From: an uncultured Solirubrobacteraceae bacterium
GTDB taxonomy: Bacteria; Actinomycetota; Thermoleophilia; Solirubrobacterales; Solirubrobacteraceae
Reading direction: 5' to 3'
Assembly: GCA_963734225.1 (NCBI GenBank)
Contig: CAVTGI010000005.1
Span: 79,176-143,175, forward strand
DNA length: 64,000 nucleotides
Of this stretch, positions 14,076 through 45,802 are shown one piece after another; positions within the stretch are counted from its first letter, which is position 1; each line of letters starts with the position of its first letter. Under the pieces are notes generated by a model. It was given only the letters and a program-made list of their open reading frames with translations, was not told the DNA's origin and searched no databases. Both the position numbers and the translations under genes were made by a program.

Positions 14076-14144
14076 CCGACTCACCCCGAAGCGATGCATG
14101 CTGCGGCGCGCCCGTGCGGTACGCCGTAGCCTGCAACTTGATCC

Positions 14145-14735
14145 ATGAATGACGAGGACGAAGAGCTTGTGGCCCGGATGCGGGCGGGCGATGAGGAGGC
14201 GTTCGTGTCCCTTGTCGCCCGCCACCACGCGTCGATGCTGCGTCTGGCCAACTCGTTCGTGTCCAGCAGGGCGGTCGCGGAGGAGGTCGTGCAGGACACC
14301 TGGATGGGCGTCTTGCGCGGCATCGATGGCTTTGCGGGGCGCTCGTCGTTCAAGACGTGGCTGCTGCGGATCCTCGTCAACCGAGCGCGCACGACCGGTA
14401 TGCGCGAGCGTCGCAGCGTGGCGATCGGCGACGCGGCGCCGGCGGTGGACGCGTCGCGCTTTGACGCCTCCGGGGCGTGGAGCTCGCCGCCCCAACACTG
14501 GGTGGAGGACAGCGACGATCGCCTGCTCGCGCAGTCGCTTGCGCAGCGCATCGAGCAGGGCCTTGCGCAGCTGCCGGAGCGCCAGCGCGAGGTCGTAACG
14601 ATGCGCGACGTGGATGGACTGAGCAGCAGAGAGGTATGCGAGGTGCTTGACATCAGCGAAGCCAACCAGCGGGTCCTGCTGCACCGCGGCAGAAGTCACC
14701 TGCGCCAGGCGCTGGAAGACGCGGTGGCGCCATGA
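14145..14735 (+). CDS. ECF-type RNA polymerase sigma-70 family factor
   Basis: Region 2 'AEEVVQDTWMGVL'. Region 4 'LPERQREVVTMRDVDGLSSREVCEVLDISEANQRVLLHRGRSHLR'. Confidence 0.9.
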   Translation: MNDEDEELVARMRAGDEEAFVSLVARHHASMLRLANSFVSSRAVAEEVVQDTWMGVLRGIDGFAGRSSFKTWLLRILVNRARTTGMRERRSVAIGDAAPAVDASRFDASGAWSSPPQHWVEDSDDRLLAQSLAQRIEQGLAQLPERQREVVTMRDVDGLSSREVCEVLDISEANQRVLLHRGRSHLRQALEDAVAP

Positions 14736-14995
14736 GGCTGCTGGCACGACGCGAGCCTCTGGTCTGCCAGGAGGTGGTGGAGATGGTGACCGATTATTTG
14801 GAGGGCGCCCTGTCGCGTGGGCAGCGCAAACGCCTAGACGCGCACCTGGCGGGCTGTGAGCACTGCAGCGAGTATCTGGCACAGATGCGCGCCACGATCG
14901 CACTGACCGGGCGCCTGCGCAGCGAGGACCTGACCCCCGAGATGCGCGAGGATTTCGGCGACATCTACCGCCGCTGGCGCGCCGAAGAAGACTGA
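14732..14995 (+). CDS. zf-HC2 anti-sigma factor
   Basis: 87 aa. ATGA overlap with the sigma gene. 'HLAGCEHCSEY' H-x3-C-x2-C motif. Confidence 0.8.
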   Translation: MRLLARREPLVCQEVVEMVTDYLEGALSRGQRKRLDAHLAGCEHCSEYLAQMRATIALTGRLRSEDLTPEMREDFGDIYRRWRAEED

Positions 14996-15060
14996 GGCCC
15001 AGCGCGGTGCGACCGCCGCGCGCGGCCCGCGCGCGTGCCCGGCCGCGCTACGCTCGTCGC

Positions 15061-15936
15061 CTACGCTCGCGCGCTGGCCTGCGGGTCAAGCCGTGACATG
15101 GTCACGGCGGCGGCGAGCTCGGAGTTGGCCCCGCCCATGTAAAGCCCCTTGACGGGGGGGACGTCCGCGTAGAAGCGTCCGTGGCCGATCTTCACGTGGG
15201 TCTCGTCGGTCAGGCGGCGGTTGGTGGGGTCGGCGCTCACCCACACGGGCTCGCCGTGGCCGTTGCTGCTCGGCAGCAGCGCCTCCAGCCACGCGTGTGT
15301 GTCCACCTCCAGCGAGTCTGTGCCGTCGTCCTCGGGCGCCGCCCACAAATAGCCGGACACGTAGCGCGCGGCGATTCCGTGGCGGCGCAGCAGCACGAGG
15401 CCGAGGTGGGCGAAGTCCTGGCAGACGCCCGCGCCGGCGGCGAGCAGGTCGCTGACCTCAGAGCCCACATAGGTGGCGCCGGGGCGGTATTCGAAGCGGT
15501 CGGGGATCAGCTCGCACAGTAGTTCGAGCGTCTCCAGCGGGCTGTCGGCGCGCAGTGCCTCGTGCAGCTCGTCAATCCCGGCGATCGGCGGCTGGTCCTG
15601 CCAGGGCAGGGCAAACTCTCCGGCGGCGTCCACGTAGGCGGCGCTGCGCAGGCTCTCCCAGCTGCCGTCGGGCGGCTCGGCTGGCGGCGAGGTAACGACC
15701 CGCGCACGCACGTCGATCGTGAGGTGGTCGTGGGCGGTGGGGATGCCGAACTCGAGCACCTCGGTGCCGAAGTAGTCCAGATGGCGGCTTACGCGGGCCT
15801 CGGGCTCGATGCGCGTGTGGAACTCGTCACATCTTTGCGTCGAGGTCGTGGCGGGGCGCACGCGCAGGGCGTTGAGGTTGTCGGTGACCGGCTCGTCGTA
15901 GTGGTACTCGGTCAGGTAGCGGATCGCGAAGTGCAT
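15061..15936 (-). CDS. transglutaminase-like family protein
   Basis: N-terminus 'HFAIRYLTEYHYDEPV'. Catalytic-Cys context 'GAGVCQDFAHLGLVLLRRHGIAARYVSGY'. Confidence 0.85.
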   Translation of the reverse strand: MHFAIRYLTEYHYDEPVTDNLNALRVRPATTSTQRCDEFHTRIEPEARVSRHLDYFGTEVLEFGIPTAHDHLTIDVRARVVTSPPAEPPDGSWESLRSAAYVDAAGEFALPWQDQPPIAGIDELHEALRADSPLETLELLCELIPDRFEYRPGATYVGSEVSDLLAAGAGVCQDFAHLGLVLLRRHGIAARYVSGYLWAAPEDDGTDSLEVDTHAWLEALLPSSNGHGEPVWVSADPTNRRLTDETHVKIGHGRFYADVPPVKGLYMGGANSELAAAVTMSRLDPQASARA

Positions 15937-15943
15937 GTTGCGA

Positions 15944-16945
15944 TCACATCCGCGGCGCGCTCGCGGCGGCGCCCGCGAAATAGCGTTCGGCCACGTCCTG
16001 GTCGATCTGTGTCAGCTCGTACTGGGTCTGTTGGCAGATTCCGGTCAACTCGGCTCCGTCGGGCAGCGCCCGGCGTTGGAAGTCTAGGTCGGCTGCCAGC
16101 CTGCTTACCCGCAAGACGGGCTTTGAGTTGCGCGGCCCCGCGTCGGCCGTGCTGAAGGCTTCGTGCAGCGAGTCCACGCAGGCGGCCACGCTGTCGGGAT
16201 ACGCGCGCTCGAACAGTAGAAAGCGGGTGACCGGGTGGGCGTTGGGCGGCGAGGTGACCGCGCGCAGGTAGGCGTGAAAGCCGCCGACGGCCTGCAGCAG
16301 GATCAGTGCGTGCCCGTCGGCGGGTGTCGCGTCATGGGCACCGCCGCCGACCCGGCCCTCCGGGCTGTCTGCCCCGGGGGTCGGCAACGCTATCCGCAGC
16401 ATCCGCAGCACCATGTCGGCGATCTCGATCAGCCCGCCGGCATCCAGGAAGCACTTGGCCTCGTCGCGCAGCATCGAGCGGTTGGCCACGCCCCAGATCA
16501 GGGCGGTGCGCTCCTTGACGTACTGGGAGGCCAGATACGGCCCCGCCGGCGCGGCGGAATTGAACTCCGCCCGGGTGGGCGGGCCCCAATCAGTCCCGCC
16601 GCGCAGCCCCAGCGCGCTGGTGTTGATCGCCTCCCACATCTCCGCGCTGATCACGTCGCGCACCGTGCGTGCCCCCTCTCTCGCGCGCTCGATGCTGGCG
16701 AGCATCGACCCCGGGCGCTCGGGGTCGAGCGTCAAATGATCGAGCGCCTGGCTGCCGCGCGGATGCTCGTGCACGTCGCCGAGCATCGCCAGCAGGCCTC
16801 CCGAGCCGAAGCTGACGCCCGGGCGAGTCTCGGAGGTCCCCTGCAGCTCAGCCTGGAAGACGGCCTCGACGGCGCGCGCGGTGAACTCCGCGCGCGCCAG
16901 GTTGCGGCCCAGCCAGTACAGCTCGTGCGCGATGCGGGCGAGCAT
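15944..16945 (-). CDS. alpha-E domain protein (DUF403)
   Basis: 'LARIAHELYWLGRNLARAEFTAR'. ATG directly abuts the stop of the upstream ATP-grasp gene (TAGATG). Confidence 0.85.
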   Translation of the reverse strand: MLARIAHELYWLGRNLARAEFTARAVEAVFQAELQGTSETRPGVSFGSGGLLAMLGDVHEHPRGSQALDHLTLDPERPGSMLASIERAREGARTVRDVISAEMWEAINTSALGLRGGTDWGPPTRAEFNSAAPAGPYLASQYVKERTALIWGVANRSMLRDEAKCFLDAGGLIEIADMVLRMLRIALPTPGADSPEGRVGGGAHDATPADGHALILLQAVGGFHAYLRAVTSPPNAHPVTRFLLFERAYPDSVAACVDSLHEAFSTADAGPRNSKPVLRVSRLAADLDFQRRALPDGAELTGICQQTQYELTQIDQDVAERYFAGAAASAPRM

Positions 16946-26586: not shown

Positions 26587-26615
26587 TTGACGGAAGAGTG
26601 TCTGTCTGTGATAGT
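26587..26615 (+). promoter_or_regulatory. candidate sigma-70-type promoter TTGACG-N17-GATAGT for the secreted-protein module
   Basis: TTGACG 26587-92, a 17-nt spacer, then GATAGT 26610-15. Located in the only AT-rich stretch of the divergent intergenic region, about 130 nt upstream of ATG 26750. Confidence 0.4.
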
Positions 26616-26749
26616 CCACCCGGGGCCACCGCAGCGAACTGCTGTCCGGAATCCTTCTAGACTATGGCGATGTTCGACCGGATCGTCACGATCAGCGGCC
26701 AGGAGCCGTGGGGTCGGTCATCACTCGACCAAGGGAGCAGCGAGAAACC

Positions 26750-27319
26750 ATGCAACGCATCGTGATGTTGGGGGTGGCCCTGGCGGCCGCGCTCTCGATC
26801 GCCGCCGTAGGCGCAGGGTCCGTCTCGGCCACGGGCCATGAATTCGTAGCCAGCAAGACGGGCAAAACCAAAGGCAAACAGACGGATGCAGCGGTGTTCA
26901 AAACAGGCGCGGGGACGCTTGAATGCAAGAACGTCTCTTCGACCGGCGAAATCACCGAACTGAAATCGGCGATCCACAAGGAAACCCTCACTTATACAGC
27001 TTGTGCTGCATTTGGCTACTCCAAAGTGAAAATCACGCCGGTGCACTTCGAATACAGCGCCAACGAATCGGCCCGACTGGAAACCGCGGTTACGATCACC
27101 CCGGAAGGCGCCGGCTGCCACATCACGATTCCCGCCCAGACGGTCTCGGGTATCTCCTATGAAAACAAACCCAGCAAAGAGATCACGGCGAACGCCAACG
27201 CCAGCGGCATCGTCTCCAAGGGCAGCGGCGAAGCCTGCGGCAGCGAAGAAAACAGCGAAGGCAGCTACACGGGCTCCATGACCGCCGAACTCGAAGGCGG
27301 CAGCGTCGAATGGAAATAG
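26750..27319 (+). CDS. small secreted Cys-containing hypothetical protein
   Basis: AGGGAG RBS. Signal peptide 'MQRIVMLGVALAAALSIAAVGAGSVSATG'. 189 aa, four Cys. Glu codons are 17 GAA to 1 GAG. Confidence 0.75.
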   Translation: MQRIVMLGVALAAALSIAAVGAGSVSATGHEFVASKTGKTKGKQTDAAVFKTGAGTLECKNVSSTGEITELKSAIHKETLTYTACAAFGYSKVKITPVHFEYSANESARLETAVTITPEGAGCHITIPAQTVSGISYENKPSKEITANANASGIVSKGSGEACGSEENSEGSYTGSMTAELEGGSVEWK

Positions 27320-27342
27320 GCGCAGTGCAGAGATAGACAGCA

Positions 27343-27371
27343 GACGGGAGTCGTCGTCGACGGCTCCCGTC
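27343..27371 (+). terminator. strong GC hairpin (possible attenuator or terminator) after the small secreted-protein gene
   Basis: GACGGGAG (27343-50) pairs with CTCCCGTC (27364-71), and an inner CGTCG/CGACG pairing is also possible. No clear T-tract follows. Confidence 0.4.
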
Positions 27372-27454
27372 CTATATGCGTGCGGCGAATGCGCGGCGCA
27401 ACGCGGCTAGGCTACGCGGGGGTCAAGGACGAGTCATCGCGAGAGGAGCGCGCA

Positions 27455-29848
27455 TTGGGCAGCAAGCCGCCCCGCGGCGGAGCAACGGGAAGCCGAACGC
27501 GAGCTGGGTGGTGCGCCTGGATCGCGCTGCTTGCGTGCGGGTGGCTCGGCTGGCCTGCGACGACGCCTGCAAGCGCTGCCGCGTGTCCCAACGCGGCACT
27601 GCGCTCTGGCGTCTCTGAGCATCTACCCGACTGTCGCGCATACGAGCAGGTCTCGCCTGTGGAAAAGGGCGGAGTGGACGCGGTCACGCTGCAACCCCTG
27701 TTTCCGGCGCAGAGCTCGGCGTGCGAACCCGGGGAAGCCTGCGCGATCGTGTATATGAACGTAGCCAGTGCGTTTGACGGTGCCCAAGGCAATGAGCTTC
27801 CCAACGCGTACATGGCCGCGCGCGGCGCTGGTGGCTGGCAGACGACGGCCCTGACGCCACCAACACTGCAGCCGCCGGCGAACGCCCAGCCGAAGGTGAG
27901 CTACGCCTTCTCGGCCGACCTCTCGCAGGCGGTGCTGCGCGTTCCGCTGCAGCGCCTGACCCAGAACGCACCCACGGGCGTGGACAACCTCTACCTCCGC
28001 GAAGCGGACGGTGCGTACTCGCTGGTGACCGCCCTGCCGCCCACCGAACCGCCGCCTACTGGCTGCGGTTCGTGCTTCGCGACGGAAGACGTACCAGCGT
28101 TTGCGGGCGCCTCGAGCGACTTTCGCCACGTCATCTTCGAGACGAACGACAGTCTGCTGGCCGGAGCGCCGGGTGGCGGCATGGACAACCTGTACGAAGC
28201 CGCCGGCGAACAGGTGCGGCTCGTCGGGATCCTTCCGGACGAACGCGTGGCGTCGGAAGGCTCGACAGCGGCGGCGGGCATCGATCCGATCGAAGGCACG
28301 GCGGGTGAGCTCCACCACGCGATCTCCCAGGATGGATCGCGCATCCTCTTCGAGGCCAAGGCAGACGGAGGCGAACCAGACACGCAACAGGAAGGCAAGC
28401 AGGAGCTCTACGATCGCCTCGAAGGCTCCTCGACGATCGAGGTCTCGGCACCGGCGCCGGGGGCAGAGCCCGCGCACTGCGAAACCAGGGAACGCGTGTG
28501 CGCCGCAGAGCGCGCACAGTTCTGGGGAGCGTCGGCGGATGGATCGGTCGTCTTCTTCACCAGTAGGGCAGCATTGACCAAGGAGTCCTTCACGGGCAAG
28601 GAAGCGGCGATATCGCAGCTCGAAGAAGAAGAAGAAAAGCGCGAAGAAGTCGAAGAAGAAAGAGGCGAAAAAGAACAGGGGACCACCACACACCGCAGGC
28701 AGCCCGGCGACGATCTGTACGTGTACGACGTCGACACACGTACCCTCGCCGATCTCACAGCAGACCCGGAAAACGGCGAAGATCCCGATGGAGCGGATGT
28801 CCTCGGCGTGGTCGGAAGCTCTGAAGATGGCTCCTACGTGTACTTCGTCGCCGAGGGCCATCTGGCGGTGGGTGCGCGCAGCGGCGAGCCCAACCTCTAC
28901 GTGTGGCATGGAACAGCGGAAGGGGCGGGGACAACGAGCTTCATCGCGGCCCTCCAGGCGGGAAAAGGAGAAAGCGGCGACGCGATGGATTGGAGTGAGG
29001 ACCCGAGAGACTCGCAGGCGTACGTGACGCCGGACGGAAGGCATCTGGCGTTCATGTCGGTCAAGCCGCTGGCCGGCTACGACAACGAAGACCAAGCGGC
29101 GGGCGAACGCGGCCACGAAACCTTCGACCATGAGGTGTTCGAGTACAGCGCAGAAACGGGGCAGCTGGTCTGCGCGTCGTGTGACCCCAGCGGCGCGCGT
29201 CCGGTGGGAAGCGCGTTCATCGGCGCCAAGCTGACCGAACGCGTCAGCACACCCTTTCATCAGCCGCGCACGCTGAGCGACGACGGCAGTCGCCTGTTCT
29301 TCTCTTCGCCCGACTCGCTCGTCCCCGGACTGGCTGGCGGCAGCGTGAAGGTCTTCGAGTACGAGGACGGCTCGCCCCAGATCATCTCCGGCACGGGCAG
29401 CAATGGCAACGATGTCTTCCTCGACGCCAGCGCGAGCGGCAACGACGTCTTCTTTGCCACCCGCGAACAGCTTGTCCCGGATGACGATGATGAACTGGTC
29501 GACGTGTACGACGCGCGAGTGGACGGTGGCCTGCCTGCGCCACCCGCCTTGACGCCACCATGCGAGGATGGGGCATGTCAGGGCGAATCCGGTCCTCCGC
29601 CGTTCCTGTCCTCGTCGCCGATCTCGGCCACCTTCGCCGGGGCAGGGAATCTTGTGCCGCCAAACGCAAAGCCAAGGCTGACCGACAAGCAGCAGCTTGC
29701 GCGAGCGCTGGCCAAATGCCGGAGGCTCAAAGTCCGCAAGCGACGCGCAACGTGCGTCGCCTACGCTAGGCGGTACTACGACCAGAGCGCCACGAAAGGC
29801 GGTCGCGCCCGCTCCCACAGGCGCCGCCACGCAGCAAGGCGACGCTGA
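27455..29848 (+). CDS. secreted 7-bladed PD40/TolB-like beta-propeller protein with a poly-Glu insert and basic C-terminal tail
   Basis: GAGAGGAG RBS lies 6 nt before TTG 27455 (the track ORF starts at GTG 27380). Signal 'WCAWIALLACGWLGWPATTPASAAA'. Blades: 'SSDFRHVIFET','SQDGSRILFEA','SADGSVVFFTS','SEDGSYVYFVA','TPDGRHLAFMS','SDDGSRLFFSS','SASGNDVFFAT'. Confidence 0.75.
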   Translation: MGSKPPRGGATGSRTRAGWCAWIALLACGWLGWPATTPASAAACPNAALRSGVSEHLPDCRAYEQVSPVEKGGVDAVTLQPLFPAQSSACEPGEACAIVYMNVASAFDGAQGNELPNAYMAARGAGGWQTTALTPPTLQPPANAQPKVSYAFSADLSQAVLRVPLQRLTQNAPTGVDNLYLREADGAYSLVTALPPTEPPPTGCGSCFATEDVPAFAGASSDFRHVIFETNDSLLAGAPGGGMDNLYEAAGEQVRLVGILPDERVASEGSTAAAGIDPIEGTAGELHHAISQDGSRILFEAKADGGEPDTQQEGKQELYDRLEGSSTIEVSAPAPGAEPAHCETRERVCAAERAQFWGASADGSVVFFTSRAALTKESFTGKEAAISQLEEEEEKREEVEEERGEKEQGTTTHRRQPGDDLYVYDVDTRTLADLTADPENGEDPDGADVLGVVGSSEDGSYVYFVAEGHLAVGARSGEPNLYVWHGTAEGAGTTSFIAALQAGKGESGDAMDWSEDPRDSQAYVTPDGRHLAFMSVKPLAGYDNEDQAAGERGHETFDHEVFEYSAETGQLVCASCDPSGARPVGSAFIGAKLTERVSTPFHQPRTLSDDGSRLFFSSPDSLVPGLAGGSVKVFEYEDGSPQIISGTGSNGNDVFLDASASGNDVFFATREQLVPDDDDELVDVYDARVDGGLPAPPALTPPCEDGACQGESGPPPFLSSSPISATFAGAGNLVPPNAKPRLTDKQQLARALAKCRRLKVRKRRATCVAYARRYYDQSATKGGRARSHRRRHAARRR
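28622..28677 (+). repeat. purine-rich GAA/AAA low-complexity tract encoding 'EEEEEKREEVEEERGEKEQ'
   Basis: Sequence gaagaagaagaagaaaagcgcgaagaagtcgaagaagaaagaggcgaaaaagaacag, inside the propeller gene. Confidence 0.95.
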
Positions 29849-32800
29849 TGAGGTTTCACGCAGACGTGGGCGCCCGCCCTGCCATCGTCGCGGTGGCGAG
29901 GCTCACGTGGCTTGTTCTGCTCGTGCTCGTGCTCGGCTTGGCACTAGCGGTTCACGCCGCAGCGGCGCCGGCGCTCCCCCATTGGAGCATCCTCTCGCAA
30001 TCGGAGCCCTCGCACTTCAAAGCGGGCGACGTGACTGACGCGTACAGGTTGATCGTGCGCAACGACGGTGCAGTGCATACAGCCGAAATGAACAAGGTGA
30101 CCGTCGACGACGTGCTGCCCGCCGGAGTGAACGCCACTGACGTAGAAGCCCGTGCAGAAGGGGCGAACGGGACCGGGTCGCCACGACACGAGCTGGCCTG
30201 CGCGATTGAAACTGTGACATGCACGTACGAAGAAAGTGCGTTGCACAGCCAAGGCCCACTGCCGCCTGGGACGACGATCGTGATGACGATAACGGTCTCG
30301 GTCGCCGCTGACGTACAAGGTCCGAGGCTCAAGAGCGTCGCAAGCGTGTCCGGAGGTGGCGCTCCCAGCGCGTCCGTCGCGGAATTGACCACTGTCAGTC
30401 CGGAACCTGTCCCTTTCGGACTCTCCTACCTCGCCACCGAAGCTACCCAGGAAAGCGGCGAAGGCGATACGCAGGCTGGCTCGCACCCGTTCGAGCTCAC
30501 GGCGAGCCTGGGCTTCAACATCAGCTTTCGTGAAGTTGCCTCCGAACAGAACGGTGGAAGAGAATCGCCGCTCTCGAGCACCTCCCCCAAGGATCTGGAA
30601 GTGGAGCTCCCGCCGGGGCTTGTCGGTAACCCGAGTGCTGTTCCGCGCTGCAGTCAGCAGGAATTCCAGGCCCAGGAACGGCTCGACTGCCCGGTGGACA
30701 CGCAGGTCGGCACGCTGACGGCGTACTTCTACGGCACATTTCCCTCGGCGGTGTTCCCCGTCTATGACATCGTCCCGCCGCCGGGGCAGCCGGTAGAGCT
30801 CGGCTTCACAATCGCGGCGATAGGACACGTCCCGCTGTTCTTTCAGGTGCGCGACAACGGCGGCAAGGGCGACGAATACTCCCTGGTTGCCCGACTGAAC
30901 AACATTCCCGAGACGGGACCCCTCCAGGGCGCGATACTGACCCTCTGGGGTGTTCCGGCCGATGGCACCCATGACCTCGAACGAGAAGGAACCACCGGCC
31001 AGGGAAGGCAGCAGCCGCAAGAATTCTGCAAGCCGAAAGTCGAATTCAAGTCGGGCAAAGAAGAACAGGTCCTCTGCCCCAGCGGCGTGGCTGCCAAGCC
31101 ATTCCTGGCCTTGCCAAGCAGCTGCTCGGGCGAAACGCTCGGCATAGGCGTGTTCACCGACTCCTGGCAGGGCCAGTCCGAAGACTTCCCTGAAGCGGGC
31201 CAGACGCCACCGACGCTCGGCCCGCTGACCGGCTGCGAACATCTCTCCTTCAGCCCTTTACTAACGGTCCAGCCGGAAACCCCCCAAGCGGGCGCGCCGA
31301 GCGGCTACACGGTGCAGTTGCACATCCCCCAGAACGAAGACCCGACGGGCCTGGCTACCCCCGACCTGAAGGACGCGGTGGTGACGCTGCCGCCGGGCAC
31401 GGTGGTGTCGCCGTCGGCGGGCAACGGCCTGCAGGGCTGCAGCGAAGAACAGTTCGAAGTACACCGGCTCGCAACGGCGTCGTGCCCGGCGGCGTCGACG
31501 ATCGGCACGGTGCAGATCGTCACCCCGCTGCTGACCACGCCGCTGGAAGGCCAGGTGTTCCTGGGCAGGCCGGCGTGCGAACCGTGCTCGACGTCGGACG
31601 CGCAGGAAGGCAAGCTGGTCCGCCTGCTTGTGCAGGCGCAGGGCTCCGGTGTGACGGTCAAGCTGGTCGGCTCGGTGGCAATCGACCAGGTCTCCGGCGA
31701 CCTGACGGCGACGTTCGCGAACGATCCGCAGTTGCCGCTGGAAGATCTGAAGCTGACGCTGGACGGCGGGCCGGGCGCGCCGCTGGCCAACGCGTCGACG
31801 TGCGGCGTGGCGCTGGCAGCGTCGTCGCAGCTGACGCCCTACAGCAGCGAAACGCCGGTGCAGCAGCCGAGCGAACCCTTCGAGCTGACCGGCTGCACAC
31901 CGCCGCAGTTTCACCCGTCGTTCGTGGCGGGCACGACCAACAATCAGGCGGGCGCGTTCAGTCCGACGACGGTGACGGTGTCGCGCACCGACTCCGACGA
32001 GGACCTGCAGCGCATCGCTGTGCGCCTGCCGCAGGGCCTGTGGGCGACGGTCTCTCGGGTGCAGCGCTGCGCCGAAGCGCAGGCGCAGGCGGCGGCGTGC
32101 GCCCCGCAGAGCCGAGTGGGCAGCGTGAGCGTGCTGGCGGGTCCGGGCGCTGACCCGCTGTTGTTGAACGGGAGCGTGTACCTGACGGGGCCGTACGAGG
32201 GCGCGCCGTTCGGCCTGGCGATCGTGGTGCCGGCTGTGGCTGGGCCGCTGAATCTTGGCACGATCGCCGTGAGGGCGGCGCTCGAGGTGGACCCGACGAC
32301 GGGGTCGCTGACGATCGCCAGCGACCCGCTGCCTCAGAGCATCGACGGCGTGCCTCTGCAGATCAAGACGGTGAGCGTGGAGATCGAACGTGAAGGCTTC
32401 ACGTTCAACCCGACCGACTGCAACCGCCTGGCGATCGAAGGAACGCTCACGAGCGCGCAGGGCGCGGCGGCGGTGGTGTCATCGCCCTTCCAGGCGGCCA
32501 ACTGCGCGACGCTGGCGTTTAAGCCGAAGCTGACCGCGCTCACGCACGCACGACCCTCGAAAGCGGATGGCGCCTACCTGCACGTAAAGGTCGTGTCTGG
32601 CTCGGGCCAGGCAAACATCGCAAAGCTCAAGGTCGACCTGCCCAAGCAGTTGCCGTCGAGGCTGCAAACGCTTCACAAAGCCTGCCCGGCGGGCGTCTTT
32701 GAAGCGAACCCGGCGACCTGCCCGCGAGCGTCGGTGGTGGGCGCGGCGACGGTGGTGACGCCCGTGTTGAACAACCCGCTGTCGGGGCCCGCGTACCTGG

Positions 32801-33159
32801 TGTCGCACGGCGGCGAGGCGTTCCCCGACCTCGAGATCGTCCTCCAGGGCGAAGGCGTGGTCCTGCGCCTGGACGGACAGACGAGCATCAAGCGGGGCAT
32901 CACGTCGAGCACTTTCAAAGCGCTGCCGGACGCGCCGATCTCGACGTTCGACCTGGTGCTGGCGTCCGGGCCCCACTCGGCCCTTGGGTCGGACCTGCCG
33001 GCCAAGGCCAAGGGGAGCATGTGCGACCAGAAGCTTGCGATGCCGGTGGCGATCACCGGCCAGAACGGCGCGGTGGTCAAAGCCACGACGACGATTGCCG
33101 TGTCGGGTTGCCCGCGCCACCGGCGCGGGCGTCAGGCCTCGGTCACGCGTGGCGCGTAG
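29848..33159 (+). CDS. large secreted/anchored hypothetical protein with four internally repeated Cys-paired modules
   Basis: ATG overlaps the upstream stop (TGATG). N-terminal TM/signal 'LTWLVLLVLVLGLALAVHAAAA'. The motif 'LP.G......C....F...C(P)...VG' recurs at nt 30607, 31387, 32026 and 32638. Confidence 0.8.
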   Translation: MRFHADVGARPAIVAVARLTWLVLLVLVLGLALAVHAAAAPALPHWSILSQSEPSHFKAGDVTDAYRLIVRNDGAVHTAEMNKVTVDDVLPAGVNATDVEARAEGANGTGSPRHELACAIETVTCTYEESALHSQGPLPPGTTIVMTITVSVAADVQGPRLKSVASVSGGGAPSASVAELTTVSPEPVPFGLSYLATEATQESGEGDTQAGSHPFELTASLGFNISFREVASEQNGGRESPLSSTSPKDLEVELPPGLVGNPSAVPRCSQQEFQAQERLDCPVDTQVGTLTAYFYGTFPSAVFPVYDIVPPPGQPVELGFTIAAIGHVPLFFQVRDNGGKGDEYSLVARLNNIPETGPLQGAILTLWGVPADGTHDLEREGTTGQGRQQPQEFCKPKVEFKSGKEEQVLCPSGVAAKPFLALPSSCSGETLGIGVFTDSWQGQSEDFPEAGQTPPTLGPLTGCEHLSFSPLLTVQPETPQAGAPSGYTVQLHIPQNEDPTGLATPDLKDAVVTLPPGTVVSPSAGNGLQGCSEEQFEVHRLATASCPAASTIGTVQIVTPLLTTPLEGQVFLGRPACEPCSTSDAQEGKLVRLLVQAQGSGVTVKLVGSVAIDQVSGDLTATFANDPQLPLEDLKLTLDGGPGAPLANASTCGVALAASSQLTPYSSETPVQQPSEPFELTGCTPPQFHPSFVAGTTNNQAGAFSPTTVTVSRTDSDEDLQRIAVRLPQGLWATVSRVQRCAEAQAQAAACAPQSRVGSVSVLAGPGADPLLLNGSVYLTGPYEGAPFGLAIVVPAVAGPLNLGTIAVRAALEVDPTTGSLTIASDPLPQSIDGVPLQIKTVSVEIEREGFTFNPTDCNRLAIEGTLTSAQGAAAVVSSPFQAANCATLAFKPKLTALTHARPSKADGAYLHVKVVSGSGQANIAKLKVDLPKQLPSRLQTLHKACPAGVFEANPATCPRASVVGAATVVTPVLNNPLSGPAYLVSHGGEAFPDLEIVLQGEGVVLRLDGQTSIKRGITSSTFKALPDAPISTFDLVLASGPHSALGSDLPAKAKGSMCDQKLAMPVAITGQNGAVVKATTTIAVSGCPRHRRGRQASVTRGA

Positions 33160-33521
33160 CGGTGATGCAGCATCAGCGCGTTGCCGTCGGGGTCGGCGAA
33201 GAAGGCCATGTGGCAGACGCCTGTGTCGAGGATGTCGCCGTTGAACGTGACGCCGCGCTGTTCGAGCGTGGCGCGTGCTGCGGCAACGTCGTCAACGTGT
33301 AGGGCAACGTGGTTCGGGTTGATGTGGTGCTCGAGGCCCATCTTCTCGGCGTTGTAGACGCTAAGCGTCAAGTTCCCGGTCTCGAACTCCGAGTAGTTGC
33401 GCTCGGGCAGGTATACGGAGCGCGCCAGCCCGAGCGTGTCGCCGTAAAACTCGGCGGCGGCCTCGACGTCTTTGGTGGGCATGCCGACGAAGTCGACGCC
33501 GGTGATCAGCTGATCGCTCAC
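33132..33521 (-). CDS. VOC/glyoxalase-family protein
   Basis: GTG 33521. 129 aa. 'VDFVGMPTKDVEAAAEFYGDTLGL', 'HVALHVDDV', 'CHMAFFADPDGNALMLH'. Confidence 0.8.
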   Translation of the reverse strand: MSDQLITGVDFVGMPTKDVEAAAEFYGDTLGLARSVYLPERNYSEFETGNLTLSVYNAEKMGLEHHINPNHVALHVDDVAAARATLEQRGVTFNGDILDTGVCHMAFFADPDGNALMLHHRYAPRVTEA

Positions 33522-33608
33522 AACTGGTTCATACCACGTAGGCTTGTGGCTGGGCGCCGTGGCATGGCGGCGGCCGGCGCGTGTGCAACGAGGAGAGAGG
33601 ACGCGAAC

Positions 33609-34910
33609 ATGACTTGGGACTTCTCGACGGATCCTGCCTTCCAGGCGCAGCTGGACTGGATGGCTGACTTCGTGCGCAGCGAGATCTGGCCGCTGGAGTC
33701 GATCTGGCGCGAGTTGGGCCTGGACGGCCTGGCGCGGGCGATGGAGCCGCTGCGCGAGCAGGTCAAGGAGCGGGGGCTGTGGGCGGCGCACCTGCCGCCT
33801 GAGCTGGGCGGCCAGGGGATGGGCCAGGTGCGCTTGGGCCTGATGCACGAGATCCTGGGCGCGTCGCCGATCGCGCCGCTGGCGTTTGGCAACGCGGCGC
33901 CGGACTCGGGCAACTCGGAGCTGATCGCGTTGGCGGGCACGCAAGAGCAGAAGGACCGCTGGCTTTACCCGCTGCTGGCGGGCGACCTGCGCAGCGCGTT
34001 CAGCATGACCGAGCCGGACACGCCGGGCTCTGACCCGACGCAGCTGCGCACGCGGGCGGTGCGCGACGGGAACGACTGGATCATCGACGGTCGCAAGTGG
34101 TTCTCGTCGAACGGCTCGATCGCGGATTTCCTGATCGTGATGGCGGTGACCAACCCCAACGCGCGCCCGTCCCAGCGCGCGTCGATGTTGATCGTGCCGG
34201 TGGACACCCCAGGCGTGGAGATCGTGCGCGACGTGCCGACGATGGAGGCTCCGTGGGAGCACTTGGGCGGCTATGGCGGGCACGCGGAAATCTCCTACGA
34301 GAACGTGCGCGTTGGCAGCGAGGCGCTGCTAGGCGCGGAGGGCACGGGCTTCGTGCTGGCCCAGCACCGCCTGGTGCCGGGCCGCATCCACCACTGCATG
34401 CGCTGGCTTGGCGTGGCGAAAAGGGCGTTTGACATGCTGTGCGAGCGGGCGACGTACCGTGAGGCGCACGGCTCGCTGCTGGCGGACAAGCAGACGGTGC
34501 GCAACTGGATCGCGGACAGCGCGGCGGAGATGCAGGCGGCGCGCTTGATGACGCTGCATGCGGCGTGGGTGATGGACACGCAGGGAGCGAGCGCGGCGCG
34601 CACGGACGTGGCGTTGATCAAGTTCTACGGGGCGAAGGTGCTGCACGACGTGATCGACCGGGCGATCCAGCTGCACGGCGCGCTGGGCTACTCGACGGAC
34701 CTGCCGCTGGAGCAGATGTACCGCTTCGCGCGCGCGGCACGCATCTATGACGGCCCGGACGAGGTCCACCGCCAGAGCGTGGCGCGCAAGATCCTGGCCG
34801 GCTACGAGCCGCCGGCGGACGGCATCCCGACCGAGCACCTGCCCACCCGCCGCGAGCAGGCGCGCGAGCGCTTTGCGCACCTGCTGGAGGCGGTTACGGC
34901 AAACGATTAA
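33609..34910 (+). CDS. acyl-CoA dehydrogenase family protein
   Basis: ATG 33609. 'FSMTEPDTPGSDP', 'DGRKWFSSNG', 'GALGYSTDLPLEQMYRFARAARIYDGPDEVH'. Confidence 0.9.
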   Translation: MTWDFSTDPAFQAQLDWMADFVRSEIWPLESIWRELGLDGLARAMEPLREQVKERGLWAAHLPPELGGQGMGQVRLGLMHEILGASPIAPLAFGNAAPDSGNSELIALAGTQEQKDRWLYPLLAGDLRSAFSMTEPDTPGSDPTQLRTRAVRDGNDWIIDGRKWFSSNGSIADFLIVMAVTNPNARPSQRASMLIVPVDTPGVEIVRDVPTMEAPWEHLGGYGGHAEISYENVRVGSEALLGAEGTGFVLAQHRLVPGRIHHCMRWLGVAKRAFDMLCERATYREAHGSLLADKQTVRNWIADSAAEMQAARLMTLHAAWVMDTQGASAARTDVALIKFYGAKVLHDVIDRAIQLHGALGYSTDLPLEQMYRFARAARIYDGPDEVHRQSVARKILAGYEPPADGIPTEHLPTRREQARERFAHLLEAVTAND

Positions 34911-41244: not shown

Positions 41245-42747
41245 TTAGGGGCAGAGCGGGTTGCGCGGGACGCCCAAGCACGGGTCCGGCATCGTTTCCT
41301 GCGCCGGTGGGACCGGTTGCCCTTTCACTTCGGCGAATTCTGCGCGGTGTTCTGAGACGTACTGCAGCTCCAGCAGGTACACGAGCGTCTGCAGAGGGTG
41401 TTCGTAGCCGGTGTTCGGGTTCGGCGTGGTGATGTGCTGGCAGCCCCAGGTGCCTTCGATGTCGGCCGGATAGACGGCGTCGACGAAACTGTTGCCGGTG
41501 AGGCAGTTGTTGGTGGAGGTGTGGCTCCCGAACAGGCCGCCCTCCATCATCACGTCGCCGGCGAAGCGCCCGCCGCCGTAGCCGTTGCCGTTGAACGTGT
41601 TGTCGGCGAGCTCGTTGCCGGCGAGCTGGAAGTAGATCGTGTCGGCGACGGGCGGGAACGGGTTGGGGTACTCGAACGCGAGCACGCCGTCGCTGGGGTT
41701 GCCGTAGATCTGGTTGCCTTCGACCAGGTCGGCATAGACGCCGGGCAGCTCCACCCCGACGCCCCACGGCGCGGCGGCGGCGGAGGCGTTGGCGGGGACG
41801 CTGAGGTTGTTGTTTTCGCCGATCACGTTGTCGCGGAAGATCGTGCAGCGTTTGATCCTGGTGGTGAAGATGCGCGGCGTGGGGTCGGGTTCTGCGACAT
41901 TCGCCCGGTGGCATTGACCGTCCTGCGGCGGCGGCCCGTCGCCGGGGTTTTCGGAGTTGGGCGCGAGGCCGTCGGTGTTGTGCACGAACTTGGACTTTTC
42001 GATCACCAGCGCGCCGCCGGAGTTCGATCCGGAGTAGCCGAGCGCGTTGTTTTCCATCACCGCTTCGCGCACGAGCGCTTTGCATTCCTGGCAGGCGCCG
42101 ATATAGATGCCGGAGTCGTTGAAGCCGGACGCGTAGATCTTTTCCCACGAGCCGTCGATCTCGTTGTTGGTGAAGATCCCGTAGCCTCCGTCCAAGCCGG
42201 TGTCGTATGCGGTCAGGTAGCGCCCGAACCAGCCGCGCGCCCCGATTTTGTGTGAGTTGGCGCCGCCGTTCCACCAGATCTCGTTGCCGCCTTCGCCGTT
42301 GATCGTCGCGCGGTCGAAGTTCGCGACGGTGAGGTTTTCGATCCACACGTCGCTCGCCTTAACGACTTCGATGCCGTTGGCGCCTTCCGGGCAGGGCGAG
42401 TGTTTGCACGGTTCGTGGTTGCCGTCGAGCAGTACCGTGTTGCGGTTCATACCGCGGATCCAGATGCCCCCGTGTTCGGGCGTCACCTTGACTTCTTCGT
42501 CGTAGACGCCTGGTTCGATCAGAACCCAGTCGCCGGGCGTGGTGGCGTCGACGGCCGCTTGGATCGTGGTGAAGTAGTGGGTGTTGGCGGGTATGTGCCC
42601 GGCGGGCGCGCCGGCGGGGCTGACGATCTCGACCTGCCCAAGGCCCAGCGCGCTGCTGGTGGCGACGCACGTGACGGCGAGGGCGAGCGCGGCGGCGGCG
42701 GCGGCGCGGAGCGCCCTGGCGGACGACCTGGTTGGCATGGACGGCAT
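41245..42747 (-). CDS. secreted right-handed parallel beta-helix repeat protein
   Basis: GGAAGGAGGGGGG RBS before ATG 42747. Signal 'RSSARALRAAAAAALALAVTCVATSSALG'. Repeated 'N...I.GN/NN' beta-helix rungs ('IWIENLTVANF','IFTNNEIDG','VMENNALGYSG','IFRDNVIGENN','LVEGNQIYGN','LAGNELADNTFNGNG'). Confidence 0.75.
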   Translation of the reverse strand: MPSMPTRSSARALRAAAAAALALAVTCVATSSALGLGQVEIVSPAGAPAGHIPANTHYFTTIQAAVDATTPGDWVLIEPGVYDEEVKVTPEHGGIWIRGMNRNTVLLDGNHEPCKHSPCPEGANGIEVVKASDVWIENLTVANFDRATINGEGGNEIWWNGGANSHKIGARGWFGRYLTAYDTGLDGGYGIFTNNEIDGSWEKIYASGFNDSGIYIGACQECKALVREAVMENNALGYSGSNSGGALVIEKSKFVHNTDGLAPNSENPGDGPPPQDGQCHRANVAEPDPTPRIFTTRIKRCTIFRDNVIGENNNLSVPANASAAAAPWGVGVELPGVYADLVEGNQIYGNPSDGVLAFEYPNPFPPVADTIYFQLAGNELADNTFNGNGYGGGRFAGDVMMEGGLFGSHTSTNNCLTGNSFVDAVYPADIEGTWGCQHITTPNPNTGYEHPLQTLVYLLELQYVSEHRAEFAEVKGQPVPPAQETMPDPCLGVPRNPLCP

Positions 42748-42777
42748 ACCCCCCTCCTTCCTTGTGGTCTGCACGGC

Positions 42778-42796
42778 GGCCAGGCCAGTCCTGGCC
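42778..42796 (-). terminator. GC hairpin between the csrA stop and the beta-helix gene
   Basis: GGCCAGG (42778-84) and CCTGGCC (42790-96) form a stem with a 5-nt loop. No U-tract. Confidence 0.35.
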
Positions 42797-42807
42797 AGAC
42801 GGCCAGA

Positions 42808-43095
42808 CTACTCCGCCGCGCCGGACCCTGCCTCCTCGGCGGCTGGCACGGGGCTGGCGCCGGCTGGGGGTGCGTCCGCGGCGCCCGACGGCGCGGCGGG
42901 CAGCGCGTCGGTGGAGGCGGCGGCGGCGCGGTTCTCCTCCTTGACCGCCAGCCAGATCTCCTCGCGATAGATGGGCACGCCCTGGGGTGCGGAGATGCCC
43001 AGGCGCACCGTGTGGCCGCTGACGCTCATGACGGTCACGAGCACCTCGTCGCCGATGACGACGCGCTCTCCAGGACGACGCGTCAGGATCAGCAT
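42808..43095 (-). CDS. csrA: carbon storage regulator CsrA with a long Ala/Pro-rich C-terminal extension
   Basis: '[48 protein letters not shown]', followed by about 40 low-complexity residues. Confidence 0.9.
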
Positions 43096-43104
43096 CGCTG
43101 CCGA

Positions 43105-43551
43105 TTATGAAGCAATCTGGTGCTGCGTGGGCAGCGCGAACAACGGCGCCTGCAGCGGTGCGTCCTCGTTGGTGTTGATCACCTGGTATCCGCGCCCTTG
43201 GCAGATGACGAGCGGAGCACGCAGGTTGGCGGTTATGTCGAGCGGGTTGGGGGTGGCGCGCACGGTCACATAGAGCGTGACCGGCGAGTGCTCGTCCAGG
43301 CCGCAGCGCTCGCGGTCCTCGGCGGCGATGTCAAGGCGAAAGTCGGAGAAGAACAGGTGGGGGCTGACCACAGGCAGGGCCAGCGCGGGATCGTCGACGG
43401 AGTGCAGCCAGAGAAATCCCGTGCCGGGGTTGCGGTCGATCAGCGCGTAGCGCAGGCCGCCGAGGCCGATCAGCCCGAAGGGGAACTCGATGACCTCCTG
43501 CGGCTGGATCTCGACGGTCCCGAAGCGGACGCTGTGGAATGTGACGGACAT
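43105..43551 (-). CDS. fliW: flagellar assembly factor FliW
   Basis: 'FPFGLIGLGGLRYALI', 'FLWLHSVDDPALALPVVSP', 'TANLRAPLVI'. Sits directly upstream of csrA. Confidence 0.9.
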   Translation of the reverse strand: MSVTFHSVRFGTVEIQPQEVIEFPFGLIGLGGLRYALIDRNPGTGFLWLHSVDDPALALPVVSPHLFFSDFRLDIAAEDRERCGLDEHSPVTLYVTVRATPNPLDITANLRAPLVICQGRGYQVINTNEDAPLQAPLFALPTQHQIAS

Positions 43552-43574
43552 GATGCGTGTCTCCTTGATGTTCT

Positions 43575-44489
43575 CTACTGCAGGAAGTTGAGCAGCGATT
43601 CCTGGACGATCTTCGCGCTGGCGCGCAGCGCAGCCTCGTAGGCGGCCTGCTCGTTGGCGTATGAGACGGACGTGGCGGCGATGTTGGTGTCCTGGGTGTT
43701 GGACAGGCTCTCGGTGATCGTGGTCTGCATGTCTTCGTTGCGGGTGAGGGCGGTCTGCAGTTGGTCGGTTGTGCTCCCGGCGACAGACTGCAACTGGCGC
43801 AGCGTTTCGGTGTTGGCGTCGAGCTTGGTCAGGTCGGTGGAGCCGAGCGCTTCGCGGTCTTCGGCGGTGCCCCCCCTGAGGTTGTTGGCGATCGTGCGCA
43901 GCGTGTCCAGCAGCTTGCCGTCGCCGGATGCTTCGCCGTTGCCCAGCAGCGTGGAGATGTCGCCACTGATGGTGACCGTCGCTCCCGGCCCGATCGCGCG
44001 GCTGATGGTTTCGTGGTTGCCCTGGTATTCGTCGCCCGCGCCCGGCTGGTAGGGGGCGGTCGTGGTGCTGGTTCCCGAGAAGACGTACTGGCCGGCGTAC
44101 TGGGTGTTGGCGTCCTGCTTGACGCTTTCGGTCAGCTGTTCGACCTCCTGGGCAACGGTGTTAAGGTCGCTCTGGTTGTTGGTCCCGTTGGCGGCCTGCA
44201 CGAGCATTTCGCGCACTCGCGCGACGACGCCGTTGATGCTCGACAGGGCGCTGCTTGCGGTGTTGGTCCAGGAGATCCCGTCCTGCGTGGCGGTAGCGTA
44301 GGAGCTCAGCCCGTCGAGCTGGCTCTGTAGGTCGATCACCTGGCTGGCGCCGTAAGGATTGTCGGAGGGTTCGAGAATCGTCCTGCCCGAGGACAGTTCC
44401 TCGCCGGTGCGCTCCAGCGAGGCGAGCGACGAGTTGAGGTTGTTGAGCAGCGAGGAGGTGACCATCGCGTTGGTGATGCGCTCGGTCAT
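43575..44489 (-). CDS. flgL: flagellar hook-associated protein 3 FlgL
   Basis: Flagellin-type N-terminus 'RITNAMVTSSLLNNLNSSLASLERTGEELSSGR' and C-terminus 'AALRASAKIVQESLLNFL'. 304 aa. Follows flgK. Confidence 0.85.
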   Translation of the reverse strand: MTERITNAMVTSSLLNNLNSSLASLERTGEELSSGRTILEPSDNPYGASQVIDLQSQLDGLSSYATATQDGISWTNTASSALSSINGVVARVREMLVQAANGTNNQSDLNTVAQEVEQLTESVKQDANTQYAGQYVFSGTSTTTAPYQPGAGDEYQGNHETISRAIGPGATVTISGDISTLLGNGEASGDGKLLDTLRTIANNLRGGTAEDREALGSTDLTKLDANTETLRQLQSVAGSTTDQLQTALTRNEDMQTTITESLSNTQDTNIAATSVSYANEQAAYEAALRASAKIVQESLLNFLQ

Positions 44490-44491
44490 GG

Positions 44492-45802
44492 CTACAGCCC
44501 TACCGTCCCGGTGTGCTCGATCAGCGTTTCGAGCATCTGGTCCATCGCGGTGAGCGTGCGCGCGGAGGCCTGGTAGCCGCGCTGGAAGGTGATCAGGTTG
44601 GTCATTTCTTCATCGAGTGACACGCCCGAGACGGCCTGGCGCTGGTCGCCGATCGCGGTGACGGTCGTCTGCAGGTTGGCCTGGTCGTCCTTGGCGGTGC
44701 GCACGTCGCTGCCGACCTGCCCGATCAGTCCCGCGTAGTCCTGTTCTGCCACGCCGCCGCGCAGGGCGGCGATGGCGAGTGCGGCTTCGTTGCCACCTGC
44801 TGCTTTTCCCGTGGACGCGCGCACTTCGGCGGAGGTCACGGCGACAGCGAGGGTGGCCGCGGTTTTGCCCGAGAAGAATGGTGTTGACAGGTGTTCGTTG
44901 ACAGTGCCGGCCAGCGTTTCGGCGACGCCGTCGAGGCTCGTCTGGATGGCCGTGAGCGCTCCTTTGGGCCCGGTCAGGCCGAGCAGCGCGCCTAGCTGGC
45001 CGCCGGCTTTTTCGGTGAGCGCCTGGGGCCAGTTGACGCTGCTGCCTTCGACCAGCGGTTTGGCGGCGTCGCCGAAGGTGACCGTGTCGGTGTGGTCGGG
45101 TTGTTCGGTGACGGTGATGTTGGCCATGCTGGAGAGCTTGTCGAGCAGCAGGTCGCGGCGGTCGAGCATGTCGTTGGGTTGCTGACCGGCCTCTTCGGCG
45201 AGCTTGATCTGGTGGTTGAGCTGGGCGATCTGGCTGGCGTAGTTTTCGACTTCGCCGCCGGGCCCGGCGAGCGAGTTGTACTGTTCGCTGGCCTGGCTGG
45301 AGATCGTGGACAGCTGCGCGCTGAGCTGGTTGAAGGTGCGGGCCAGCTGTTGTCCGTCTGCCACGACGGCATCTTTGGCTGCTTCGCTGGTGGGCGAGTC
45401 GGCGAGGCTGGTCCAGGCGCTCCAGAAGGTGGACAGCTGGCTGGCGATCCCGGCGCTGGACGGTTCGTTGAACGCGCTCTGGGCCTGGGAGAGCACTTCT
45501 GCCTGCGTGCTGGCGTTGCTTAGCGCGCTGTTCTGGGTGCGGAACTGGGCGTCGAGGTAGCTGTTGCGAACACGGGCGATGTTGCCGACGCTGACGCCCG
45601 TGCCCAGCTGCGCACCGCGGCCGGTGATCGAGTTGGTCGCGGGGATCGTGATCGGCAGGTTGGTCTGCAGATCGGCGGTCTCACGCGTATAGCCTTCGGT
45701 GTTGGCGTTGGTGATGTTCGAGCCGGTGACGTCGAGCGCTTGCTGCTCGGCGAGCAGCCCGCTGAGCGCGGTCTGCAGTCCTTGAAGGGTGGGGATCGAC
45801 AT
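44492..45802 (-). CDS. flgK: flagellar hook-associated protein 1 FlgK
   Basis: ATG 45802. 'GLQTALSGLLAEQQALDVTGSNITNANTEGYTR'. C-terminus 'SLDEEMTNLITFQRGYQASARTLTAMDQMLETLI'. Confidence 0.9.
   Translation of the reverse strand: MSIPTLQGLQTALSGLLAEQQALDVTGSNITNANTEGYTRETADLQTNLPITIPATNSITGRGAQLGTGVSVGNIARVRNSYLDAQFRTQNSALSNASTQAEVLSQAQSAFNEPSSAGIASQLSTFWSAWTSLADSPTSEAAKDAVVADGQQLARTFNQLSAQLSTISSQASEQYNSLAGPGGEVENYASQIAQLNHQIKLAEEAGQQPNDMLDRRDLLLDKLSSMANITVTEQPDHTDTVTFGDAAKPLVEGSSVNWPQALTEKAGGQLGALLGLTGPKGALTAIQTSLDGVAETLAGTVNEHLSTPFFSGKTAATLAVAVTSAEVRASTGKAAGGNEAALAIAALRGGVAEQDYAGLIGQVGSDVRTAKDDQANLQTTVTAIGDQRQAVSGVSLDEEMTNLITFQRGYQASARTLTAMDQMLETLIEHTGTVGL

Follow-up and report, generated by a model that had tools for sequence, protein, structure and literature searches.

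What is the function of three adjacent genes whose products all seem to be exported and none of which can be placed in a named functional family? This question is raised by positions 26750-33159 of a stretch of 64,000 nucleotides, hereafter called the window, taken from contig CAVTGI010000005.1 of an uncultured member of the Solirubrobacteraceae, a soil actinobacterium that is presumably monoderm. An initial annotation of the window had seen in these three genes an undescribed cell-surface system. We refer to them as A (26750..27319), B (27455..29848) and C (29848..33159), three co-directional open reading frames (ORFs) on the + strand. According to the ORF list, alignments, Pfam and AlphaFold2 (AF2) models, they would encode a secreted small all-beta protein of 189 residues, a secreted PD40-type beta-propeller protein of 797 residues and a secreted multi-module all-beta protein of 1103 residues, respectively.

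The B-C pair and the small gene in front of it

Since each of the three proteins has many homologs in the databases (81 for A, at least 1769 for B and at least 727 for C, with 47-97% identity among those listed), A, B and C are real genes under selection. Their homologs are labelled only "hypothetical", "TIGR01451 repeat protein" or "WD40-like". By their NCBI names nearly all come from metagenome-assembled genomes (MAGs) of Solirubrobacteraceae, a single B match being labelled Isosphaeraceae.

We scanned one genome per species, which gave 320 C-encoding stretches, and retrieved 73 loci, all from Solirubrobacterales MAGs. We observed by tblastn that B is located directly 5' of C in 73 of these 73 loci, often in tandem B-C-B-C arrays, and that some genomes carry at least seven paralogous pairs. 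The adjacency holds even for paralogs that share only 40-48% (C) and 30-36% (B) identity with the proteins of the window. In the window, the TGA of B and the ATG of C share one base (TGATG, 29846..29850), exactly as the initial annotation had read it, and the B stop likewise overlaps the C start (as GTGA, ATGA or TGATG) in 64 of 78 pairs, the gap being at most 30 nt in 12 more. This universal adjacency, together with the stop/start overlap, indicates that B and C constitute an obligate, translationally coupled pair.

The complete A-B-C arrangement was found with both flanks in about 32 genomes, where identity is 47-67% for A and about 60% for B and C. In this orthologous group (about 32 loci, C identity ≥55%) A is present 5' of B and the context is invariant: an M20 peptidase, a GS-like gene and a DUF6885 gene precede A, B and C, and a glyoxalase and an acyl-CoA dehydrogenase follow them. 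Such a fixed chromosomal context excludes a recent island. In addition, a tblastn search with C found nothing in phage and plasmid collections, and we rejected a mobile-element origin on this ground.

Outside the orthologous group the situation of A is different. A profile search detected divergent A-like genes directly 5' of five paralog cassettes (L037, L039, L040, L046 and L051); their products are small, with a signal peptide and Cys residues, and their mature N-terminus often contains HEF/HEW or KEF. Other paralog cassettes have, in place of A, a gene for a 335-residue TetR-like regulator and VapBC-like toxin-antitoxin genes. Judged from these sequence comparisons, it is the B-C pair, a cassette with very many paralogs, that forms the conserved functional core. 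A is an add-on that diverges far more rapidly than either B or C and can be detected 5' of only some cassettes. The three-gene module of the initial annotation is thus indeed uncharacterised and co-inherited, in a fixed context, in the orthologous genomes, but its core consists of two genes and A is not always present.

Architecture of the three proteins

The N-termini of A, B and C are all signal-peptide-like, with AxA-type sites that are conserved in the alignments. Beyond these signal peptides the three proteins have no transmembrane segment, and the only strongly hydrophobic stretch, a short one near residue 790 of C (in module M3, see below), is read as a buried beta-strand and not as a membrane helix. 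All three are rich in paired Cys residues, as was noticed initially: 4 in A, 16 in B and 22 in C. No named functional family could be assigned to any of them by Pfam, NCBIfam, PADLOC, PHROGs and PDB searches, in agreement with the initial annotation; the only matches are PD40 in B and a weak DUF11-like match in the head of C.

Protein C starts, after its signal peptide, with this head domain (residues 42-185, 29971..30402), which is followed by four modules of about 200-280 residues. DUF11 matches residues 57-168 with 22.2 bits, below the cutoff of 24.6; 30 of 43 homologs match it at E≤0.1, the best at 6.9e-6. NCBIfam gave no match to C at E≤1, though JGI labels many homologs TIGR01451. Module M1 (residues 186-468, 30403..31251) carries the motifs QAGSHPF and WGVP...HDLEREGT, M2 (residues 469-688) and M3 (residues 689-890) together form a repeatable stalk unit (31252..32517), and M4 (residues 891-1092, 32518..33123) is terminal, followed only by a short basic tail, CPRHRRGRQ. 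The four modules claimed for C are thereby supported, with a separate head in front of them. The repeats were revealed by profile-profile comparison only (hhalign: M2 and M3 95.8%, M2 and M4 98.4%, M1 partially at 69-77%), BLAST self-comparison of B and C having disclosed none; M1 shares with the other modules just the core "LPPG...C-x12-C...G.V". Among 43 homologs, 20 of the 22 Cys of C are invariant and two nearly so, and they are spaced as pairs.

We then scored the C profile against 1.84 billion cluster representatives, which returned 9693 matches at E≤1e-3 and 3625 at E≤1e-30; the organism labels of the cluster members are "Actinobacteria/Actinomycetota bacterium" MAGs. When module hidden Markov models were mapped on the best 150 matches and related fetched cluster members, 160 sequences in total, we observed a common grammar, [variable head]-M1-(M2-M3)n-M4-[tail]. 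In these relatives M1 occurs once, or split in two, on the N-terminal side, whereas M4 stands at the C-terminal end, where it is normally last and sometimes duplicated. Between them the M2-M3 unit is repeated 1 to 15 times, the longest proteins reaching 7161 residues. The heads vary, being DUF11-like, NHL/SGL-like propellers with fn3-like "FEYGTT" domains, or absent. The repetition of M2-M3 up to 15 times suggests a stalk, and the C of the window looks like the n=1 form, i.e. the shortest form of a length-variable stalk protein and not a four-domain enzyme. The core of the family, roughly 900 residues, has no relative in Pfam, NCBIfam or PDB; PDB sequence-profile searches with C gave nothing meaningful and a literature search on the A/B/C family found nothing. 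For C, AF2 was given a shallow alignment, whose sequences share 59-87% identity with C, and the resulting model is all-beta. In Foldseek it is matched best by strings of immunoglobulin (Ig)-like domains, namely PrgB, antigen I/II, Saf pilus, integrin alpha legs and MG domains, with the PilB pilin lower in the list.

For protein B the listed ORF is 27380-29848; the supported start is the TTG at 27455, located 6 nt after GAGGAG within the Shine-Dalgarno sequence GAGAGGAG (27441..27448), which gives 797 residues, close to the 800 announced initially. Eleven orthologous loci align here with an ATG after the same Shine-Dalgarno sequence, and the homologs have 730-797 residues with a conserved N-terminus. 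By comparison, the public call of B in a near-identical contig (L074) starts 68 codons 3' of the TTG at 27455, resulting in 729 residues instead of 797 and in the loss of the signal peptide; automated annotation therefore probably masks the secretion of many B homologs.

The signal peptide of B is followed by a CPN...LPDCRAYE region, eight blades, an acidic insert at residues ~390-410, a Cys pair, a Pro-rich linker and a polybasic tail, and the 16 Cys are spaced as pairs, including two CxxC motifs. PD40 (PF07676) matches B with 36.6-36.8 bits, the Pfam cutoff being 20.9, and 36 of 36 homologs match it. It is the sole Pfam match of B, with no TolB N-terminal domain, and a PDB sequence-profile search gave nothing meaningful. 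The propeller foreseen in the initial annotation was therefore recovered, but with eight blade motifs and not seven: "S.DGS..F...LY" occurs, about every 70 residues, at residues 153, 220, 291, 360, 456, 525, 608 and 659.

The C-terminal polybasic two-Cys tail of B (29666..29845, LTDKQQLARALAKCRRLKVRKRRATCVAYARRYY...) has the consensus LTxxQxLARALAKCRRLKxRKRRxxC..A.RRY and is conserved in the orthologs and in most B paralogs of the fetched loci. A tail of the same type is also present at the C-terminus of 14 C-family representatives and of one NHL-type protein, and the fact that it is common to three protein architectures argues that it acts as an independent C-terminal module, which may serve for anchoring. 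The NHL-type protein is encoded in locus L039, 3' of a paralog B-C pair, as a secreted protein of 770 residues, and is followed 3' by a gene for a secreted protein of 301 residues with 95% GAA usage; these two genes (12706-15948) may represent a different type of cassette sharing the B-type tail.

Protein A has a signal peptide at about residues 1-27/29 and four Cys (59, 85, 123 and 163), all invariant in the alignment. Its most conserved segments are the mature N-terminus, (H)EFVASKTGKTK, and the C-terminal EWK. The AF2 model has a mean predicted local distance difference test (pLDDT) of 85.7, exceeding 90 over residues 31-189, and is all-beta with long hairpins. In the PDB and BFVD viral libraries Foldseek found nothing at E<0.001 for this model; TM-scores were highest, at about 0.35, for OmpA/OmpW-like and designed barrels, from which no fold assignment was taken. 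Pfam, NCBIfam, PADLOC, PHROGs and PDB sequence-profile searches of A found no match and, by hhalign, A is unrelated to C. The structural comparisons of A and C that the initial annotation called for have thus yielded no confident homology to a characterised family.

Expression signals and codon usage

The promoter of A (26587..26615, + strand) consists of TTGACG, a 17-nt spacer and a TG-extended GATAGT, as found by a promoter scan and by the alignment of 12 orthologous loci. It is conserved in 12 of these 12 loci as TTGACA...TCTGTGATAGT, i.e. TTGACA-17-TGTGATAGT, together with blocks in the leader and with the AAGGAG of the Shine-Dalgarno sequence, which reads AAGGGAG in the window (26731..26737). 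On the other side of A, 24 nt after its stop, starts a GC-rich hairpin with a 13-bp stem and a 3-nt loop (27343..27371). The surrounding 84 nt fold with -42.8 kcal/mol, z = -3.6 against shuffles, a comparison made for the window locus only. A GC-rich stem-loop of up to 17 bp is found in the A-B spacer of nearly all 31 related loci, usually right after the A stop; its position is conserved, its sequence is not, and a few stems are weak. The strong hairpin that had been noticed between A and the two large genes is thus real, and it is a candidate intrinsic terminator or attenuator, with no clear U-tract. Rfam contains no known RNA matching the A leader or the hairpin region.

The motif CTAGRCTA occurs twice in the 64 kb, 0.39 occurrences being expected: as CTAGACTA in the A leader (26657..26664) and as CTAGGCTA 41 nt 5' of the B start (27407..27414). 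Both sites fall in conserved columns of the ortholog alignment, the TAG.CT columns of the second being invariant in 12 loci. The site at 27407 looks like an actinobacterial GnTAnnnT -10-like element or an operator, the two sites could be copies of a common -10 element or of a common operator, and B-C may have its own weak promoter besides read-through of the hairpin. Attenuation, the model proposed initially, is plausible as one option among others, and the conserved A promoter and hairpin position fit a higher expression of A. Because its promoter is near-consensus and the hairpin terminator-like, A is probably made in excess, as an abundant partner of B and C.

Five paralog B-C cassettes (L041 ~7530-7690, L043 ~7640-7790, L045 ~7700-7850, L052 ~7590-7740 and L061 ~6330-6480) have another conserved element at their 5' side, which is absent from the window. 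It consists, in this order, of a small GC hairpin, cgTTGACTagatgca...tgca, a (TC)11-13 tract and ttggccgg..gctagcttctag. The length of the tract varies among the paralog copies, and the element may be a promoter or leader subject to slipped-strand phase variation.

A further property of the three genes is their codon usage. GAA:GAG for Glu is 17:1 in A, 42:19 in B and 45:13 in C, while cytoplasmic neighbours use mainly GAG (e.g. 3:30). This bias exists despite a high GC content at third codon positions (GC3), leaves CAA:CAG unaffected and is kept in 11 of the 11 orthologous loci examined as well as in the paralog cassettes. We compared the module (26750-33159) with other genes of the window (33309-34910, 41245-51529 and 57974-59122) and with loci L001-L073, using crude heuristics for the gene calls and the signal-peptide test. 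In the window the GAA fraction is 0.83 for FlgK, 0.82 for FliD, 0.65 for FlgL, 0.62-0.67 for the rod proteins and 0.73 for a secreted beta-helix protein; the bias is missing from the cytoplasmic proteins FliG, FliS, the sigma factor, CsrA and FliW. Over the window and the 73 loci, A/B/C homologs have a median fraction of 0.73, other signal-peptide-like genes one of 0.42 and all remaining genes one of 0.11 (Mann-Whitney p = 8e-13). Being common to exported flagellar axial proteins and to proteins with Sec or Tat signals, the signature gives independent support for the export of A, B and C. We know of no explanation for the GAA preference of exported proteins.

The flagellar genes used in this comparison belong to a cluster at 42808-62448. 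CsrA and FliW were named from Pfam matches on a matching contig, and the names of FlgK/L, the rod proteins, the sigma factor, FliD, FliS, FlgB/C, FliF and FliG were read from position and N-terminal sequence. A signal-peptide protein of 509 residues with a weak beta-helix match is encoded at 41245-42774, directly after flgK-flgL-fliW-csrA, a position that is kept in the orthologous loci and where Bacillus has flagellin. Also in the window, the region 52000-55200 has a GC content of 0.656 and a strong positive AT skew, and a GC3-based caller picked no gene there; its ORF 53657-55090 (+ strand) has filamin, Big_3_5, PKD and YtkA-like Ig-domain matches and may be a further secreted Ig-repeat protein or a gene of the flagellin region. 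On the - strand, an NB-ARC/AAA ATPase gene (10246-11844) followed by a TPR-repeat protein gene (9124-10239) forms a STAND-like pair (9124-11844) unrelated to the module.

A possible surface complex and its alternatives

We compared the module with known surface systems. The window is 98% identical to an ENA metagenome contig, from which Pfam records for the genes within about 10 kb of the module were taken; 10 further proteins of the window were scanned directly. No ORF of the window combines LPXTG with a hydrophobic tail, and LP.TG is absent from A, B and C; no gene with TLxTC is present in the window and no sortase family within about 10 kb. Motif searches of A, B and C found neither the pilin motif (YPKN) nor an E-box. 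SLH domains gave no match in A, B and C at E≤1 nor in 43+36 homologs at E≤0.1, and no SLH, usher or pilin family is found in the Pfam records for genes within about 10 kb. No usher, chaperone, prepilin peptidase or secretion ATPase is encoded within the same distance, the operon comprising A, B and C only. The initial annotation was therefore right about sortases and LPXTG and, for the genes covered, about SLH, ushers and pilins, but its statement that the window has no secretion ATPase does not hold, since a direct Pfam scan identified FliI, the flagellar type III ATPase, at 59591-61189. It lies 26 kb from the module, within the flagellar cluster, and is the only secretion ATPase found in the window. 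A, B and C also have no thioester motif C.EQ, no HExxH and no A2M Pfam match. Lipobox-pattern matches occur only deep inside C and none is N-terminal, and no known cell-wall or membrane anchor family was detected by Pfam and NCBIfam in A, B, C or their homologs. PADLOC defence models gave 0 families at E≤1 for the three proteins.

The closest likeness is to fibrillar adhesins and tandem Ig-like stalk proteins such as PrgB, antigen I/II and SpaA-type pilins, with which C shares an all-beta structure, matches to Ig chains, a variable head and tandem stalk domains in variable number (M2, M3 and M4 are homologous and n ranges from 1 to 15). Unlike these proteins, however, A, B and C have no LPXTG, sortase, pilin motif or E-box, the modules of C are disulfide-rich and outside any Pfam stalk family, B is an obligatory, translationally coupled propeller partner, and the candidate anchor is a polybasic two-Cys tail. 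B resembles TolB/PD40 proteins by its PD40 repeats, which exceed the Pfam threshold in all homologs; it differs from TolB by eight long blades of about 70 residues, a Cys-rich N-terminal region and a basic tail, and no Tol-Pal genes are among the called genes within about 10 kb, in a host that is presumably monoderm. A propeller with an Ig-like leg recalls the integrin alpha ectodomain (propeller, thigh and calf; Foldseek probability 0.95-0.97 for C), but here propeller and leg are separate polypeptides, the TM-scores, obtained with a low-confidence model, are about 0.1, and the sequences are unrelated, so that the likeness is one of architecture only. The order of a small, strongly promoted first gene, a hairpin and larger genes is that of major-subunit-first pilus operons (fim/pap, type IV pilA), from which the module differs by the lack of a pilin fold match for A and by a possible separate -10 element 5' of B. 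With alpha-2-macroglobulin/complement-like proteins only the generic MG/Ig-like fold matches of C are shared. Taken together, this suggests a kind of tandem-Ig stalk surface protein that has an obligate propeller partner, carries a candidate new anchor and belongs to a very large family still lacking annotation.

The explanation that we prefer, tentatively and a little short of even confidence, is that A, B and C form an exported, disulfide-stabilised, sortase-independent, wall-associated propeller-stalk complex for adhesion or recognition, with A as its abundant partner. The three proteins would be exported by Sec and stabilised by disulfides outside the cell. B would fold as an eight-blade PD40 propeller and C as a rod of variable head, M1, M2-M3 stalk unit and M4. 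Translational coupling would keep their amounts roughly equal, and the two would associate into a heterodimeric propeller-on-stalk complex. With assistance from the short basic tail of C, the polybasic, disulfide-clamped tail of B could then hold the complex electrostatically on anionic wall polymers, in place of sortase, SLH or lipid anchors. A, a small fast-evolving beta-protein in excess, would be a coat or polymer subunit or a ligand-binding component of the complex. The role would be surface adhesion or recognition, and the many paralogous B-C cassettes would provide alternative specificities. We would give only a small chance to a bolder form of this explanation, a Sec-only, sortase-independent appendage in which B-C is a base seated on a new polybasic, disulfide-clamped helical-hairpin wall anchor and bears or nucleates a polymer or coat of A, the paralogs, some with (TC)n, being switchable variants.

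Several observations weigh against the propeller-stalk complex. No known adhesive domain was detected in the proteins by Pfam and NCBIfam, and the role given to the polybasic tail is conjectural. AF2 modelled C poorly (mean pLDDT 59, below 50 over residues 186-470), so that the fold matches obtained are generic. The model of A, a confident one, is without match and has a weak likeness to small beta-barrels (TM-score at most 0.35), so that a soluble ligand binder fits as well. The highly conserved M1 motifs QAGSHP and WGxP....H could mark a site for catalysis or metal binding instead of a structural feature. At about 60% identity the orthologous proteins are fairly conserved, in contrast to many adhesins that undergo diversifying selection. 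Finally, the signal peptides were judged by sequence, conserved AxA-type sites in alignments and a crude heuristic.

Two other functions have to be weighed against the propeller-stalk complex. A might be the major subunit of a sortase-independent fibre, polymerising after signal-peptidase cleavage, for example by donor-strand exchange via its mature N-terminus, with B-C as base, nucleator or tip. Sec-dependent donor-strand fibres exist elsewhere, e.g. TasA and archaeal threads, and this proposal would account for the strong conserved promoter, for the terminator-like hairpin between A and B-C, for the conservation of the mature N-terminus and C-terminus of A and for its divergence across cassettes, faster than that of B and C, as exposed subunits do. 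We nevertheless consider it unlikely: in the confident AF2 model A is a complete monomer from which no strand is obviously absent, Foldseek finds no likeness of A to a pilin or TasA-like fold, and many B-C cassettes have no detectable A-like gene. Alternatively, the module might capture or process an extracellular substrate, A being a ligand-binding barrel (for lipid, metal, haem or peptide) and B-C a receptor or enzyme with a site formed by the propeller and M1. The weak fold neighbours of A are indeed small barrels and carriers of lipids or ligands (YceI-like, VtrC, LolA and designed ligand-binding barrels), PD40 propellers are found in peptidases as well as in binding proteins, M1 contains invariant His/acidic motifs (H213 and H375-D376-x-E378-x-E380), and in relatives the C core is joined to NHL/SGL-like propellers and to fn3/PhoD_N-like domains. 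This too appears doubtful, since Pfam, NCBIfam and PDB profile searches recovered no catalytic family, distant relatives keep only the M1 His and lose the acidic residues, HExxH and thioester motifs are missing, the metabolic genes next to the module lie on the other strand or belong to unrelated pathways, and the tandem (M2-M3)n expansion points to a structural spacer.

The absence of any joint function, the three genes being unrelated secreted neighbours or a recently acquired island, is by far the least probable of these explanations. The GC content ranges from 0.64 to 0.74 over the window and is lower (0.656), with A-rich sequence, at 26-32 kb than in the flanks (about 0.70-0.72), and the codon usage of the module is atypical. 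The codon shift is, however, specific for GAA and common to other exported proteins, hence no general sign of foreign DNA, and C has no relatives in the phage and plasmid collections. Chance adjacency is contradicted by the synteny of A-B-C and its flanks across about 32 genomes and by the universal B-C pairing with overlapping stop and start, and we exclude it.

Thermoleophilia, and Solirubrobacterales among them, are abundant soil bacteria that are mostly uncultured. To our knowledge, almost nothing is known about the cell surface of these groups. Characterising the A/B/C family would offer a way into the study of adhesion and surface variation in the lineage, and the shared polybasic tail could be a new wall-anchoring signal. 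The C family being very large, its description would close a gap in the annotation of thousands of proteins now called "hypothetical", and the GAA signature, if general, would offer a new sequence-only marker of protein destination.

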